Assembly: GCA_964573795.1 (NCBI GenBank) | Contig: CAZNMF010000049.1 | Span: 1,232-65,231 of the forward strand | Source of the DNA: an uncultured Solibacteraceae bacterium | Lineage (GTDB): Bacteria > Acidobacteriota > Vicinamibacteria > Vicinamibacterales > SCN-69-37 | DNA length: 64,000 nt | Direction of reading: 5' to 3' | Shown here: one piece after another, positions 25,213-30,426 of the stretch | Layout of the letters: every line of letters starts with the position of its first letter | How positions within the stretch are numbered: position 1 is the stretch's first letter | Made by a program: the position numbers and the translations under genes | Notes under the pieces: generated by a model | What the model saw: only the letters and a program-made list of their open reading frames with translations | Told to the model about the DNA's origin: nothing | The model's database searches: none

Positions 25213-26598
25213 CTAGCTCCGTTCCAGCCGCTTCAATTTCTCGATGAGCGTCGTCCGCTTGACGTGGAGGAGATCGGCCGCCTGCCGCTTGTTGCCGCCG
25301 GCCCGCTCGAGCGCGCGCCGGATGAGGGTGTGCTCGAACTCGGATACGAGACGTTCCATGTCGACGCCCGACTCGGGGATGATGACTTCCGTCGGACTCA
25401 ACACGGGGCTCGCTTCGCGAAGCTCCTCCGGCAGGTCGGCCGCCGCGATCTGCGTCTTTCCCGGCGACAGCGCGTACGTGCGCTCGATCATGTTCTCGAG
25501 CTGACGCACGTTGCCTGGCCACGGATACGCCATCAGCGTCTGTTGCGCGTCCTGCGCGAGTGTCACTCGGCCGCGCGCGGGATTCTCGCCCGCAAAGCGG
25601 TCGAGAAAATGCTGCGCCAGCAGCGGGATGTCCGCGCGGCGCTCGCGCAGTGCCGGCAGTCGCACCGGAATGACGTTCAATCGATAGTACAGGTCTTCGC
25701 GAAACGAGCCTTCGTCGACCATCTTCTTGAGGTCGGCGTTGGTCGCCGCGATGACGCGCACGTCGACGCGCACCGTCTGGGAATCGCCGACGCGCTCGAA
25801 CTCGCGCGCCTGCAGCACGCGCAGCAGCTTGGCCTGCAGCGCGGGACTCATCGTCCCGACTTCGTCGAGGAACAGCGTGCCTCGGTGCGCCTGCTCGAGC
25901 CGTCCCTGACGGTTCGCGACCGCGCCCGTGAACGCGCCGCGCACGTGCCCGAAGAGCTCCGCCTCGAGCAGCGTCTCCGGAATCGCGCTGCAATTGATCG
26001 CGACGAAGCGCTGACTGCGTCGCGGGCTCGCGTCGTGAATCGCGCGCGCCGCCAGCTCCTTGCCGGTGCCCGTCTCGCCGCTGATCAACACGGTGCTCGC
26101 CGTCGCTGCGACCGTTCGCAGCAGCTCGAACAGGTGCGCCATCACCGGCGTTCGCCCCACGATGCCCTCGATGCCGAAGCGGCCGTGCAACTGCTCGCGG
26201 AGATAGGCGTTCTCCGATTTCAGCCGCCGGCGCTCGATGGAGACCGTCAGCTCGTGCAGCAGCTCTTCGAACTGGAACGGCTTGGTGATGAAGCCCTCGG
26301 CGCCGCGCCGGGTGATTTCCACGGCCTCCCGCACGGTCCCGAAGCCGGTAATGACGATGGCGATGATCTCGGGGTAGCGGGCCAGGGCCTCGTCGAGGAC
26401 GGTCCGGCCGTCCACACCAGGCAGGCGCAGATCGGTAATCAGGATGTCAAAGGCGAATTGCCGCAGCCGTTCCAGCGCCTCTTCGCCGGTGCCGGCCTGA
26501 GCGACCGTAAATCCCGTTTCCTGAAGGCGATCGGCGATGGCCTCCCGAAACCCGGCCTCGTCGTCGATCAACAGGAGGTGGCCCGACAGGTCGCTCAT
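25213..26598 (-). CDS. Sigma-54-dependent response regulator (REC-AAA+-Fis HTH; NtrC family enhancer-binding protein)
   Basis: Inner start [17 protein letters not shown] with [14 protein letters not shown], Walker [15 protein letters not shown] motif ([10 protein letters not shown]), and C-terminal HTH ...[24 protein letters not shown]... Confidence 0.9.
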
Positions 26599-26778
26599 GA
26601 AAGCGACGGTATCTTGACACGAAGCGCGGGCCGAATCGAGGGTGAGGCCTGCGGCGGAGTCGCCGCCAGGAGGCAGCCAGTTAAAGTCACCGTCGAACGT
26701 CGCCGATATTGTGGGTGAACGCGCCCTCGGGCGCGCGGCCGAGTGCACAACCTCCCTCGGCCGCTGGATGGGTGAGCG

Positions 26779-27000
26779 ATGCTGCTAGAACGAAAGACCG
26801 TATCGATTCCGCGGGCGTGCGAGCTGGTCGGTGTCAGCCGCCGCACCATTTACAACTGGATCGCCGGGGGCAAGGTGCAGTACGTCCGGACAGCCGGCGG
26901 TTCCGTCCGTATTTTCGAGGACACGCTCTGGCGTAATCCGGACGCCTCGAACGACGAGCAGGGAGCGGCCTGGACGCAGCGACTCAGTCGTGGCGCCTGA
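26779..27000 (+). CDS. Small excisionase/MerR-superfamily HTH DNA-binding protein
   Basis: 73 aa with ...SIPRACELVGVSRRTIYNWIAGGKVQYVRTAGGSVRIF..., the pattern of HTH_17 / excisionase-family domains. Confidence 0.7.
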   Translation: MLLERKTVSIPRACELVGVSRRTIYNWIAGGKVQYVRTAGGSVRIFEDTLWRNPDASNDEQGAAWTQRLSRGA

Positions 27001-27235
27001 CCCATCGACGGCACCGCCATCGCCTCTCGATCCCGCTGCGCTGTCGCAGGTCTTTCACCGGCTGAACAACCAGCTCGGTGTGATCCTCGCGAACGCCGAG
27101 CTGCTCGAAGCTCGTCTGACCGAAGACACCCAGCGCGCCAGGGCCAGCCAAGTGGTCTCCGGCGCGCTGGAAGCGATCTCGGCGATTCAGGATCTCCGAC
27201 GGATCGTCGGCCTGAACAACCCGGCCAACCGCTAG
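26990..27235 (+). CDS. Stand-alone DHp-like (HisKA helix-hairpin only) small protein, about 81 aa
   Basis: C-terminal part of track ORF 26831..27235. GTG at 26990 overlaps the HTH gene's end by 11 nt. The sequence ...QVFHRLNNQLGVILANAELLEARL...RARASQVVSGALEAISAIQDLRRI... resembles the H-box helix (HDFNNLLTVILGxAELL type) plus a second helix of histidine-kinase dimerisation domains. No ATPase domain follows. High GC3 from the H-box onward. Start codon uncertain. Confidence 0.5.
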   Translation: MAPDPSTAPPSPLDPAALSQVFHRLNNQLGVILANAELLEARLTEDTQRARASQVVSGALEAISAIQDLRRIVGLNNPANR

Positions 27236-27261
27236 CGCCCATGTCGGCGCGATGACAACCC

Positions 27262-28290: not shown

Positions 28291-28351
28291 GGCCGCGCGA
28301 CCGGCGTCCAACATCGAACACGACCGCCGAGGCGGATCGGTCGAATCGACG

Positions 28352-29905
28352 CTATCGCAGCGTTTCGCGCGCGACGCGCACCAGGTCGCGAAGACGGAAC
28401 GGCTTGGGCACCCAGCGGCAGCCGCTCTCTTCGAGGAAGCGCTCCGCCTCCGTGCCCGCGACGTCACCGGTCACGAAAATCAGCCGGCGCGCGATGTGCG
28501 GCATCTTGGCCGAGACTTCGCGGAAGAACGCCATGCCGTCGACCTTCGGCATCTTCAAGTCGCAGATGATTACGTCGTAGTGCGTCTCGCGCACTTTCTT
28601 CAGCGCCGCTTCGCCGTTCTCCGCGCGATCCGTCCGGAACCCTTCATCGGCCAGCGCCGCCGCCACCGCGTCGCCGAGCGCGGGCTCGTCCTCCACGACC
28701 AGCGCGCGCGTGCCCTTTGGCACGTCCGGCAGCGGCTGCGCGGGCGCCGGCTCCTGCGTGCGCAGTGACGCGCCGCTCACCGGCAGCTCGAGCAGAAACG
28801 ACGCGCCGCCTTCCGGCAGCGACGACACGCTGATGCGGCCACCGTGCTCCTGCGCGATCGCGTACGCGACGGTCAGCCCGAGTCCTGTGCCCTTGCCGAC
28901 GGGCTTCGTCGTGAAGAACGGCTCGAAGACCTTGTCCTGCACCTGATCCGGCACGCCAGGACCGTCGTCGGCGACTTCGAGGACGACGGCGTCGCTCTCG
29001 GCGTCGTGCCAGGAGCGCAACGTGAGCGTGCCGCGGCCGTGTGCCTCGAGCATCGCCTGCTCGGCGTTGATCACCAGATTGAGGACGATCTGCTGGATCT
29101 GGTGCGGATCGACGAAGACCGGCGGCAGCGACGAGGCGAGCGAGTCGGCGATGGCGATCTGGCTGCCACGCTGGTCGTAGGCGCGCAAGGCGAGCGTCTC
29201 GCGCACGACCTGATTGATGTCGACGGTCATGCGCGTCGTGTGACGCTTGCGCGCGAACGTCTGCAGGTTGCGGACGATGCGCGCGGCGCGCTCGGCGGCG
29301 TTGTGGATGGCGTCGAGATCGCGCCGCGTGACGTCGTCGACGCGCTGGCCCGTGAGCCGCTCGGCGCACGCCAGGATCGTGGCCAGCGGAGTGTTCAGCT
29401 CGTGCGCCACGCCCGACATCGTCTGGCCGAGGGAGGCCATCTTCTCGGATTGCGACAACTGATGGGCGAGCTCGCGGCCCTGATCCTGCAGCTTCTTGCG
29501 ATCCGTCACGTCGCGCATGATCGCTTCGACGCGCAGCGTCGCGCCGGATGCGAGCGTCTCGGCGCGCGCGGTGACCTCGATCCACATCGCCGTGCCGTCG
29601 AGGCGCCGCACGCGCACGAGCGTGTCGCGGGCCGCGCCGTCGCGCGCGAGCTGACGCAGGAGCTCGGCGCGCGCCAGCTCGTCGACGAAGCGATTGGGAT
29701 CGAACGGGCGCACCTCGGCGGCCGGGGCATCGTCGGGCCAGCCGAACATGACGCGCAGGTGGCGATTGGCCGCGAGCGTCGCCGTCTCCGCCGGTCCGAT
29801 CAGGCCGATGTAGACGCCCTCGGGAAGGTTGTCGAAGAAGTGGGCGAACGCGTCGAGCGAGAGCGCCGACGAATCGCGGCGGCGAGCGGGGGAACGCGGC
29901 GTCAC
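28352..29905 (-). CDS. Soluble hybrid sensor histidine kinase (PAS-HisKA-HATPase-REC)
   Basis: PAS-like segment (...GTAMWIEVTARAE...IMRDVTDRKK...), H-box SGVAHELNTPLATI, N and G boxes (LVINAEQAM, DDGPGV, GKGTGLGL), and C-terminal REC (ALVVEDEP...DVIICDLKMPKVDG). No TM segment. The start is set at a GTG 2 nt after the upstream stop; the track ORF's N-terminal extension overlaps the PCYCGC gene and is rejected. Confidence 0.85.
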   Translation of the reverse strand: MTPRSPARRRDSSALSLDAFAHFFDNLPEGVYIGLIGPAETATLAANRHLRVMFGWPDDAPAAEVRPFDPNRFVDELARAELLRQLARDGAARDTLVRVRRLDGTAMWIEVTARAETLASGATLRVEAIMRDVTDRKKLQDQGRELAHQLSQSEKMASLGQTMSGVAHELNTPLATILACAERLTGQRVDDVTRRDLDAIHNAAERAARIVRNLQTFARKRHTTRMTVDINQVVRETLALRAYDQRGSQIAIADSLASSLPPVFVDPHQIQQIVLNLVINAEQAMLEAHGRGTLTLRSWHDAESDAVVLEVADDGPGVPDQVQDKVFEPFFTTKPVGKGTGLGLTVAYAIAQEHGGRISVSSLPEGGASFLLELPVSGASLRTQEPAPAQPLPDVPKGTRALVVEDEPALGDAVAAALADEGFRTDRAENGEAALKKVRETHYDVIICDLKMPKVDGMAFFREVSAKMPHIARRLIFVTGDVAGTEAERFLEESGCRWVPKPFRLRDLVRVARETLR

Positions 29906-29907
29906 GC

Positions 29908-30426
29908 TCAGCCGCCGGCGGGCGGTTGCGGCGTCGGCGTGTGACCCATGTGGCGCCCGCCGAAGCGCTGTTCGACCGCAGCGCGGATTTGCGCCACCGA
30001 CGCGCCCGCGTCGTGCATCTGCATCGCCATCTGCGCGACGTCCACGCACACTTCGCAGCCGATGCCGTGCTCGTCCCATTCGACGACATGGCCCTGGCTG
30101 TCTCGACGCTTGACGTAGCAATCGTGGTTCGCCTGATGCCCGCCGCGCTCGCAGCCGCAGAAGCACGGCACGTAGCGCAGGACTTCCGGATGCCGCGCGG
30201 CGAACGCGTACGCGCTCTTCACGACGGGCACCGGACGGACGGCGTACGACAAGCTCGACGGCAGCGGCGGCAAGTCGCTCGCGACGATGTTGAAGCCGGA
30301 AGACGCGCCGCTCGCCGGCGCGCTGGAGGCGCTCGACGACGAGGACGCGCCCGGCGAGCACGAGCCCGCCGCGATCGCAGCGGCCAGGACGGCCGCGGCC
30401 GTCGACGCGCGAGTCGATGTGCGCAC
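29908..30426 (-). CDS. PCYCGC-motif (lipo)protein
   Basis: 172 aa with a GTG start. Signal/lipobox-like N-terminus ...AAAIAAGSC, a Ser-rich linker, then ...VLRYVPCFCGCERGGHQANHDCY...CEVCVDVA... matching the PCYCGC-motif domain pattern. Confidence 0.75.
   Translation of the reverse strand: MRTSTRASTAAAVLAAAIAAGSCSPGASSSSSASSAPASGASSGFNIVASDLPPLPSSLSYAVRPVPVVKSAYAFAARHPEVLRYVPCFCGCERGGHQANHDCYVKRRDSQGHVVEWDEHGIGCEVCVDVAQMAMQMHDAGASVAQIRAAVEQRFGGRHMGHTPTPQPPAGG

Follow-up and report, generated by a model that had tools for sequence, protein, structure and literature searches.

In the flagellar hierarchies of Vibrio, Legionella and Campylobacter/Helicobacter (FlgS-FlgR), a sigma-54 activator stands above fliA, and sigma-28 in turn drives flgM. 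The phosphotransferases Spo0B, ChpT and PhyT all retain a C-terminal alpha/beta domain akin to the catalytic domain of kinases, a point made for ChpT in an abstract as well. Few soil bacteria are more abundant than the Vicinamibacteria (Acidobacteria subdivision 6), whose gene regulation is almost undescribed. In Caulobacter crescentus, the ShkA-ShpA-TacA pathway leads from a hybrid kinase through a phosphotransfer protein to a sigma-54 activator (PMC7010744). Spo0B of Bacillus, ChpT of Caulobacter and PhyT of Sphingomonas are DHp-type phosphotransferases that act between receivers, PhyT being also a phosphatase (PMC3433190, PMC5898713, PMC9981736). Here we analysed a 64,000-nucleotide stretch of DNA (the window) from a contig of a Vicinamibacterales metagenome-assembled genome obtained from soil, and in it the gene cluster at positions 25213-30426, which encodes an NtrC-type sigma-54 activator, an excisionase-like HTH_17 protein, a small DHp-like hairpin protein, a FliA/WhiG-family sigma factor, a hybrid histidine kinase and an accessory PCYCGC-motif protein. 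We propose that this cluster represents a two-tier sigma factor cascade with a feedback arm, carried as a class-wide cassette of the Vicinamibacteria, and we give this reading a probability of about 0.5.

Each tier of the proposed cascade has a precedent in ShkA-ShpA-TacA, in Spo0B/ChpT/PhyT or in the flagellar hierarchies. New are the combination of the tiers, the lack of any flagellar gene among the scanned window proteins, the Xis-like partner and a family of hairpin-only DHp proteins that is described in no database. The locus resembles ShkA-ShpA-TacA in its soluble hybrid kinase with a C-terminal receiver (REC), its separate candidate phosphotransfer protein and its NtrC-type sigma-54 activator. 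It differs in that ShpA is a monomeric HPt four-helix bundle, whereas the candidate here is a two-helix DHp hairpin and no HPt was found among the scanned window proteins; moreover, the system here has a sigma factor gene as its output, and the candidate transfer protein appears to be under the control of that same sigma factor. With Spo0B, ChpT and PhyT the small protein shares a DHp-homologous helical hairpin with a histidine, which in those proteins is phosphorylatable and not accompanied by autokinase activity; unlike them, it stops right past the hairpin, and no membership of their class was detected at the sequence level. As in the flagellar hierarchies, a kinase, an NtrC-type activator and sigma-54 are placed above a FliA-family sigma factor, and a sigma-28-type promoter precedes a small candidate feedback regulator. 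Unlike in those hierarchies, no flagellar gene occurs among the 36 window proteins scanned, and the Xis-like HTH protein, the DHp hairpin and the PCYCGC protein are unrelated to FlgM or to a flagellar checkpoint. To our knowledge, cultured Vicinamibacteria are described as non-motile; literature searches on motility in this class returned nothing usable. A FliA-family sigma factor outside motility is also known from the WhiG-RsiG/BldC system of Streptomyces, and WhiG is the second-best solved relative of the sigma factor described here. BldC, a regulator of development, is a small HTH protein of the MerR/Xis-like kind. In contrast to that system, no RsiG-like cyclic di-GMP motif (ExxxSxxRxxxQxxxD) was seen by eye in the hairpin, and the HTH_17 protein matches the NCBIfam model HTH_BldC weakly, with 22.7 bits, far under the BldC cutoff of 77. 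We further know of no sigma-54 control in Streptomyces.

The six elements listed by a first-pass annotation, made from the letters of the window and a list of open reading frames, are all present within 25213-30426 as judged by gene calls, Pfam matches and motif reading, and the calls of the activator, HTH_17, small-protein and sigma genes are exactly identical to the deposited proteins HWB29649 to HWB29646. The activator gene on the minus strand is divergent from the HTH_17 gene, which is followed on the plus strand by the small gene, a 239-bp spacer and the sigma gene; the kinase and PCYCGC genes then run convergently on the minus strand. In the activator (25213-26598, minus strand; HWB29649.1) we found Response_reg (PF00072, 82.8 bits), Sigma54_activat (PF00158, 243.5 bits, E = 1.2e-72), AAA_lid_14 (PF25601, 91.3 bits) and Fis-type HTH_8 (PF02954, 44.2 bits) domains, and its translation shows the GAFTGA motif of the AAA+ domain, a Walker A motif and the acceptor-Asp segment ITDLRLPG of the REC domain. 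It scores below every NCBIfam equivalog cutoff and is thus not AtoC, NtrC, ZraR or another named member of the family. The sigma gene (27475-28290, plus strand; HWB29646.1) starts with ATG at 27475 behind the ribosome-binding site GGAGGAGG at 27462-27469. Among the families tried on its 271-aa product, TIGR02479 (188.3 bits, cutoff 189.6) scores far higher than any other, the FliA and WhiG models coming next; Pfam detects regions Sigma70_r2 and Sigma70_r4 strongly and r3 weakly, and the best solved relatives are E. coli FliA (6pmi, 1e-36), WhiG (6pfv, 5e-34) and Aquifex FliA (1rp3, 1e-27). The kinase (28352-29905, minus strand) had been described as a soluble PAS-HisKA-HATPase-REC hybrid. It contains HisKA (48.8 bits), HATPase_c (87.1 bits) and Response_reg (74.3 bits) domains and, lacking any hydrophobic or transmembrane segment (maximum KD19 1.08), is predicted to be cytoplasmic; the PAS assignment is weaker, with PAS_9 at 22.6 bits against a cutoff of 27. 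The kinase H-box reads VAHELNTPL, and its REC has the invariant Asp within ICDLKMP and an invariant FVTGDVAGT segment. The FVTGD part of this segment is a partial match to the FATGUY motif, which is seen in intermediary receivers (PMC9981736). No match to HPt (PF01627) was obtained in the six cassette proteins and 30 other window proteins, a few gaps being left unscanned, in agreement with the earlier statement that the window encodes none.

Comparative counts were taken from a scan of one genome per species, in which the small protein was found in 523 species and 80 loci were kept, nearly all of them labelled Vicinamibacteria or Acidobacteriota and two with other bin labels; for each neighbouring gene, the denominator is the number of loci that span its position. 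The -24/-12 promoter TGGCAT-N5-TTGCC (TGGCATCGCTGTTGCC, 27420-27435, plus strand) agrees with the consensus TGGCAC-N5-TTGCW in the 12-nt distance between GG and GC and in its place 40-60 nt ahead of the sigma ATG, and it is one of only two matches to the pattern in 64 kb, where 0.12 are expected. In 81 of 82 loci TGG[CT]A[CT]-N5-TTGC stands on the 5' side of the sigma gene, its spacer varying freely, and distant lineages also keep the promoter there, in part as a variant with CTGCA at -12. Upstream of it, at 27243-27285, are two palindromes, GTCGGCGCGATGAC (27243-27256) and GTCAATCGGCCGAC (27272-27285). With at most one mismatch allowed, GTCA-N6-TGAC was counted in the upstream regions of 81 unique loci: each has a site at -178, at -148 or at both, measured from the promoter, and 68 have the pair, which none of 1620 shuffled controls has. 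Within the window alone GTCR-N6-YGAC occurs at chance level (18 found, 16.6 expected), so the significance of the palindromes rests on their fixed position across loci. The palindromes and the sigma-54 promoter are retained in rearranged lineages as well, also where the activator gene is not adjacent. This footprint, a promoter in nearly every locus with palindromes at a fixed distance, bears out the proposal that the sigma gene is sigma-54 dependent, and the co-location of palindromes and activator gene suggests that it is this activator that binds them. Between the putative activator sites and the promoter there is a direct repeat, TTCAC-N5-TTCAC (27313-27327, plus strand), and TTCAC repeats recur at -107/-97 from the sigma-54 promoter in many Vicinamibacterales loci, not in every lineage; an AT-rich, IHF-like stretch follows them in several loci. 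A further element, GACGGTATCTTGACAC (26605-26620), lies 7 nt from the activator start codon, and almost every locus has a GGTATTTTGACAC-like sequence there. One possibility is a degenerate half-site for the activator, pointing to autoregulation; another is an extended -10 element (TGTCAAAAT, minus strand) of a nearly leaderless activator mRNA.

The second tier involves two features that had been overlooked. The gene at 26779-27000 (plus strand) encodes a 73-aa Xis/excisionase-like DNA-binding protein with matches to PF12728 (35.1 bits, cutoff 27) and TIGR01764 (37.2 bits, cutoff 28.8), the top PDB match being the mycobacteriophage Xis Gp37 (4j2n). It lies directly 5' of the small gene in all 75 loci that span this position; in the window the GTG start of the small gene (26990-27235, plus strand) lies 11 nt before the HTH_17 stop, so that the two genes overlap by 11 nt, and in other loci they are 5-30 nt apart. 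Between the activator and HTH_17 genes we identified the sigma-28 (FliA)-type promoter TAAAGTCA-N12-GCCGATAT (26682-26709, plus strand). The E. coli sigma-28 consensus is TAAAGTTT-n11-GCCGATAA (PMC2859248), and the site agrees with the cognate promoter pattern of FliA/WhiG-type factors, TAAA-N15-GCCGATAA. It is the sole match to TAAA-N14-17-CCGATA in the window (0.03 expected), and in 77 of 77 unique loci the HTH_17 gene is preceded by CCGATA, which stands about 16 nt downstream of a TAAAG, CTAAnG or CTAyAG element. Throughout the 1.4 Mb of loci, 105 of 112 matches to the sigma-28-type motif fall at this very site. The simplest reading is that the FliA-like sigma factor transcribes the HTH_17 and small genes from this promoter. 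Consensus scans revealed no sigma-70-like promoter, nor did they show a terminator-like site in the 239-bp spacer ahead of the sigma gene; in the absence of such a terminator, read-through would make the sigma factor autoregulatory. The CCGATA motif is absent from one rearranged locus (L091), where the HTH_17/small pair lies downstream of the sigma gene, behind the sigma-54 promoter. In both layouts, the one with the sigma-28-type promoter and the one with the sigma-54 operon, the small protein would thus be made as a consequence of activation. The module had been called self-contained, a description that we do not uphold: the HTH_17 partner had been left out, and so had the sigma-28-type promoter, which places the DHp protein downstream of the sigma factor. 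Regarding what else this sigma factor may control, its regulon is not visibly flagellar as judged from the 36 window proteins. In a freshwater lineage (L143, 5915-11841) the sigma gene is followed by the polysaccharide genes Wzy_C, a flippase, two GT2 and one GT4. Extra sigma-28-type promoters were seen before a 451-aa open reading frame (ORF; L053, 545; L059, 50) and before a 112-aa Cys-rich ORF (L097, 2894). The polysaccharide genes and these promoters are possible hints to the sigma regulon.

Co-occurrence of the six components had been named as a check on the module, and we found it for the sigma factor, the activator, the kinase, the DHp protein and the sigma-54 promoter, not for the PCYCGC accessory. 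The HTH_17 gene is present in 75/75 loci, the sigma gene in 73/73, the kinase gene in 67/69 and the activator gene, divergent from HTH_17, in 64/65; the PCYCGC gene reaches 47/68 and is absent in rearranged lineages. The flanking genes vary more, with an HD-domain gene in 39 of 68 loci, Dus in 44 of 55 and Mfd in 34 of 55, so that the core of the cassette is kept while its surroundings change. In the rearranged locus L091 five genes (HTH_17, small protein, sigma, activator and kinase) are still clustered: the sigma, HTH_17 and small-protein genes come in this order, followed by the convergent activator and kinase genes in one operon, and PCYCGC is missing. The upstream neighbour of the sigma gene is SurA there, and yet the promoter and both palindromes are present. 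The kinase and activator genes also share an operon in L094. Relatives of the L091 lineage were collected by a metagenome scan, and in them HTH_17, small protein and sigma were always together. In two loci (L103, L131) the activator gene comes right after the sigma gene, without the kinase; in four others (L100, L137, L143, L150) neither the activator nor the kinase gene lies within 7 kb. Linkage as read from these arrangements is tightest for HTH_17, small protein and sigma, followed by the activator and then the kinase, with PCYCGC optional, and the distribution of the loci marks the cassette as class-wide across the Vicinamibacteria. These genes might be neighbours merely by inherited synteny within one clade, without any joint function, given that every locus comes from one bacterial class and that many share a wider synteny of Mfd, SurA, Dus, FabZ and GAF-SpoIIE genes. 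The core, however, stays constant despite varying flanks and is reassembled in another order in other lineages, and two types of promoter matching the encoded regulators stand at the right places; we therefore regard mere synteny as extremely improbable.

We propose the following course of events for the two tiers. The cytoplasmic PAS hybrid kinase would control the phosphorylation of the NtrC-type activator, a pairing that we consider fairly likely from gene linkage, including the shared operons in L091 and L094. Bound to the two GTCA-N6-TGAC sites, about 150-180 bp upstream, the activator together with sigma-54 RNA polymerase would fire the -24/-12 promoter of the sigma gene. The newly made FliA/WhiG-like sigma factor would then read the sigma-28-type promoter before the coupled HTH_17/hairpin pair, and read-through into its own gene would result in autoregulation. 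Taken jointly, the sigma-54 step and the sigma-28-type step are likely and well backed by the comparison of loci, with somewhat more confidence than the pairing of kinase and activator; of all the links, that between the sigma-54 promoter and the sigma gene has the best support. The cassette would then be a cascade from sigma-54 to a FliA-family sigma factor with no flagellar genes detected nearby, and its three DNA motifs (GTCA-N6-TGAC, the sigma-54 promoter and the sigma-28-type promoter) could be used for mapping two regulons in hundreds of genomes.

The feedback arm depends on the nature of the small protein, an 81-aa product identical to HWB29647.1, a deposited hypothetical protein, in which the H-box FHRLNNQLGVILANAELLE contains His23. 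Its 2473 relatives are all small stand-alone proteins of 61-101 aa without Pfam domains; the family forms 298 clusters at 50% identity, with members of 53-182 aa. A core of about 55 aa is near-invariant (FHRLNNQLGxxLANAELLE...ARAxQVVxGxLxA...LRR), and the histidine is present in 242 of 242 members containing the motif; of three members plainly without it, two are truncated at the N-terminus and the third begins with unrelated sequence. When the family was aligned by hhalign with the DHp domains of the neighbouring kinases, the match had 94.2% probability (E = 1.1e-7) and placed His on His, with hairpin FHRLNNQLGxIL over kinase AHELNNPLATIL. Weak HisKA matches, the commonest kind, were obtained for 6 of 18 diverse relatives (best E = 0.0085), followed by HisKA_3 and HisKA_2. 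The AlphaFold2 model consists of helices 15-42 and 46-75 (predicted local distance difference test score 86), and the chain ends 6 residues past helix 2. Together, the alignment of histidines, the invariance of the residue, the modelled hairpin and the weak HisKA matches support the earlier identification of this protein as DHp-only, and we accept it as a DHp homologue. Membership of the HisKA, HPt or Spo0B/ChpT class is not accepted: the window protein does not reach the curated thresholds of HisKA, HisKA_2 or HisKA_3, the HPt profile gives no match, and the extra C-terminal domain of the Spo0B/ChpT class is absent here. The only match of the window protein to a Pfam or NCBIfam family, XAC0095, has 17 bits and is at chance level. 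An acidic residue beside the histidine is needed by kinases for autophosphorylation, and the His+4 position in HisKA kinases is linked to phosphatase activity. In this family the residue following the histidine is R, K, Q or T and almost never acidic, and an Asn is retained at His+4. More than 2000 sequences thus form an uncharacterised family that consists solely of a histidine-kinase DHp hairpin with an invariant histidine; our literature searches found nothing usable on stand-alone DHp proteins and no paper on a hairpin-only DHp family. In a freshwater lineage (L091, 8001-8420, and its relatives, alignment A3) the small protein has a 60-100-aa N-terminal extension with the invariant motif DLSRWxGPLSPAF, behind which comes a low-complexity linker.

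We picture the hairpin as a stand-alone, probably dimeric DHp that has lost the acidic residue of autokinases and kept the His and the Asn at His+4. It would most likely dock on the receiver of the kinase, of the activator or of both, and move or remove phosphoryl groups, thereby feeding back on the kinase step. A receiver-directed role is favoured because the receiver face of the H-box is frozen and the kinase REC keeps its conserved FVTGD; that the hairpin acts on receiver domains through its His and Asn is nevertheless a tentative proposal, for which we see somewhat less than an even chance. If it does move or remove phosphate, it would be a minimal form of the Spo0B/ChpT class and a useful part for phosphorelay engineering. 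Placed as it is, the small protein would be an output of the cascade that is made after activation and probably serves in feedback, rather than as a permanent step of a relay or a constitutive substitute for HPt. In the first-pass annotation, by contrast, a four-step relay had been proposed in which the DHp protein could stand in for the missing HPt. In its strict form, the hairpin would be the sole route of an obligatory linear relay from the kinase His through the kinase REC Asp and hairpin His23 to the activator REC Asp, as a minimal Spo0B/ChpT-like replacement for HPt. The hybrid kinase indeed has a conserved REC and no HPt, none was found in the 36 window proteins scanned, and the DHp homology, the invariant His and the lost acidic residue of the hairpin agree with such a role. 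Hybrid kinases can, however, phosphorylate a partner directly, their REC serving as a sink, and an HPt gene may lie elsewhere in the genome. There is precedent for a hybrid kinase acting through a phosphotransferase on a sigma-54 activator (PMC7010744), and DHp-type transferases such as ChpT exist (PMC9981736). Against the linear relay, the hairpin gene is under a sigma-28-type promoter or inside the sigma operon, and its product would, barring basal expression, be made only after the activator has worked; furthermore, it is linked more strongly to sigma and HTH_17 than to kinase or activator. As this expression pattern is that of a feedback element, we lowered our estimate of the four-step relay and now consider it unlikely, as one of several readings that is only partly supported. 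Slightly less doubtful, while still rather unlikely, is a bolder version in which the hairpin of about 55 residues is the first stand-alone DHp-type phosphotransferase/phosphatase, complexed with the Xis-like protein, and its His-phosphorylation from the hybrid kinase receiver directly gates the circuit of sigma-54 activator and FliA-like sigma factor, making a bistable Vicinamibacteria-specific phosphorelay embedded in a sigma factor circuit.

The linkage pattern of the hairpin is equally compatible with a role directed at receivers and with one directed at the sigma factor or at DNA. One role of the latter kind would be that of an anti-sigma factor for the FliA-like sigma factor, in the manner of FlgM, NepR or RsiG, with the hairpin acting alone or with HTH_17, fed back from the promoter of the sigma factor itself and owing its DHp ancestry to history. 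The adjacency of HTH_17, hairpin and sigma is universal in every layout, expression from a sigma-28-type promoter recalls flgM of enteric bacteria, and a sigma-dependent promoter before two small regulators and a sigma gene is reminiscent of the rsbV-rsbW-sigB and spoIIA operons. On the other side, Pfam and NCBIfam gave no match of the small protein to FlgM or any anti-sigma family, and the His, the Asn-Asn and the receiver-facing H-box, unchanged over 298 clusters, would be unexpected in a mere sigma binder, the more so as anti-sigma factors usually evolve fast; we hold this role to be improbable. The hairpin could also serve the Xis-like HTH_17 protein as a partner or for dimerisation, the complex sitting on DNA, for instance on the TTCAC repeats, and tuning the sigma-54 promoter. 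Translational coupling is found everywhere and the pair persists in all lineages; the direct repeats at -107/-97 are conserved in many loci, and proteins of the Xis/BldC type are known to bind direct repeats. These repeats are not universal, though, and apparent fusions of HTH_17 with the hairpin, which might have spoken for a complex, are frameshift artefacts. This subunit role is very unlikely in our judgement. Both it and the anti-sigma role leave the invariant His unexplained, and for the HTH_17 subunit the same is true of the H-box. The fusions P0140 and P0163 were rejected since they come from a contig with many broken genes (L087, ENA contig_9463, an error-prone assembly), and the fusion-like proteins or odd N-termini P0184 and P0257 were rejected as alternative-frame miscalls; the Rosetta-stone argument was accordingly dropped.

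Several observations weigh against the cascade with a receiver-directed feedback arm. The small protein remains under every curated Pfam and NCBIfam threshold (no Pfam match at E <= 0.01), and a PDB profile search with its alignment returned no kinase, the top match being IFT74 (E = 0.14). Foldseek often placed kinase DHp domains among the top matches (ZraS, GacS/RetS, ERS1, ShkA, CpxA), with E-values of 0.4-1.5 that are not significant; this enrichment is taken as weak support for the DHp homology. As a fold, moreover, the two-helix hairpin is generic. The hairpin is linked most tightly to HTH_17 and sigma, a linkage that persists without a nearby kinase or activator. The sigma factor itself scores 1.3 bits under the FliA/WhiG cutoff of TIGR02479, and the palindromes are tied to this particular activator through co-location only. 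We retain the two-tier cascade with the hairpin as its probable feedback element at the level of confidence given above.

The sixth gene of the cluster (29908-30426, minus strand) encodes the PCYCGC-motif protein, which matches PF13798 with 93.4 bits (cutoff 25) and has PCFCGC in its translation. Its TGA stop lies 2 nt before the GTG start of the kinase (TGA-gc-GTG), and this junction agrees with the predicted translational coupling of the two genes. The protein had further been taken for an exported lipoprotein; a hydrophobic stretch at its N-terminus makes export plausible, while the poor lipobox (AAGSC) leaves the lipoprotein part uncertain. The gene was found 5' of the kinase in 47 of 68 loci and is missing from L001, L003, L005 and L091, a distribution that marks the protein as an optional add-on to the kinase operon. 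Literature searches on PCYCGC function gave nothing usable. In L091, where PCYCGC is absent, a heavy-metal P-type ATPase with an HMA domain (12441-14858, minus strand) is located near the kinase operon. The P-type ATPase and the Cys-rich PCYCGC protein are hints to a metal or redox input.

Around the cluster, a hypothetical basic protein of 133 aa without a Pfam or NCBIfam family is encoded at 24808-25209 (minus strand), 4 nt 3' of the activator gene, and occurs in 50 of 65 loci; it is a probable operon partner of the activator gene, and its membership of the cassette is uncertain. A Dabb-domain gene (24455-24811) comes after it. A GAF-GAF-SpoIIE (PP2C) phosphatase gene (31944-33725, plus strand) is often found beside the cassette, and another PP2C gene (15155-15931, plus strand) lies farther off. 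PP2C phosphatases of the SpoIIE kind often serve in partner-switching control of sigma factors, and no STAS or anti-sigma kinase gene was seen with the PP2C genes in the scanned loci and window proteins. A second sigma-54-like promoter, TGGCACATCCCTTGC (52428-52442, minus strand), was noted between two hypothetical genes without a Pfam family: the stop codon of the first (52459-53073) is 17 nt away on its upstream side, and the ATG of the second (about 51802-52395) follows at a distance of about 35 nt. YidC, Jag (R3H), MnmE, ParA and ParB are encoded in a row at 897-9910, followed by genes for ATP synthase and Wzm/Wzt polysaccharide export; because the first five adjoin in this way, the window probably lies near the chromosomal replication origin.

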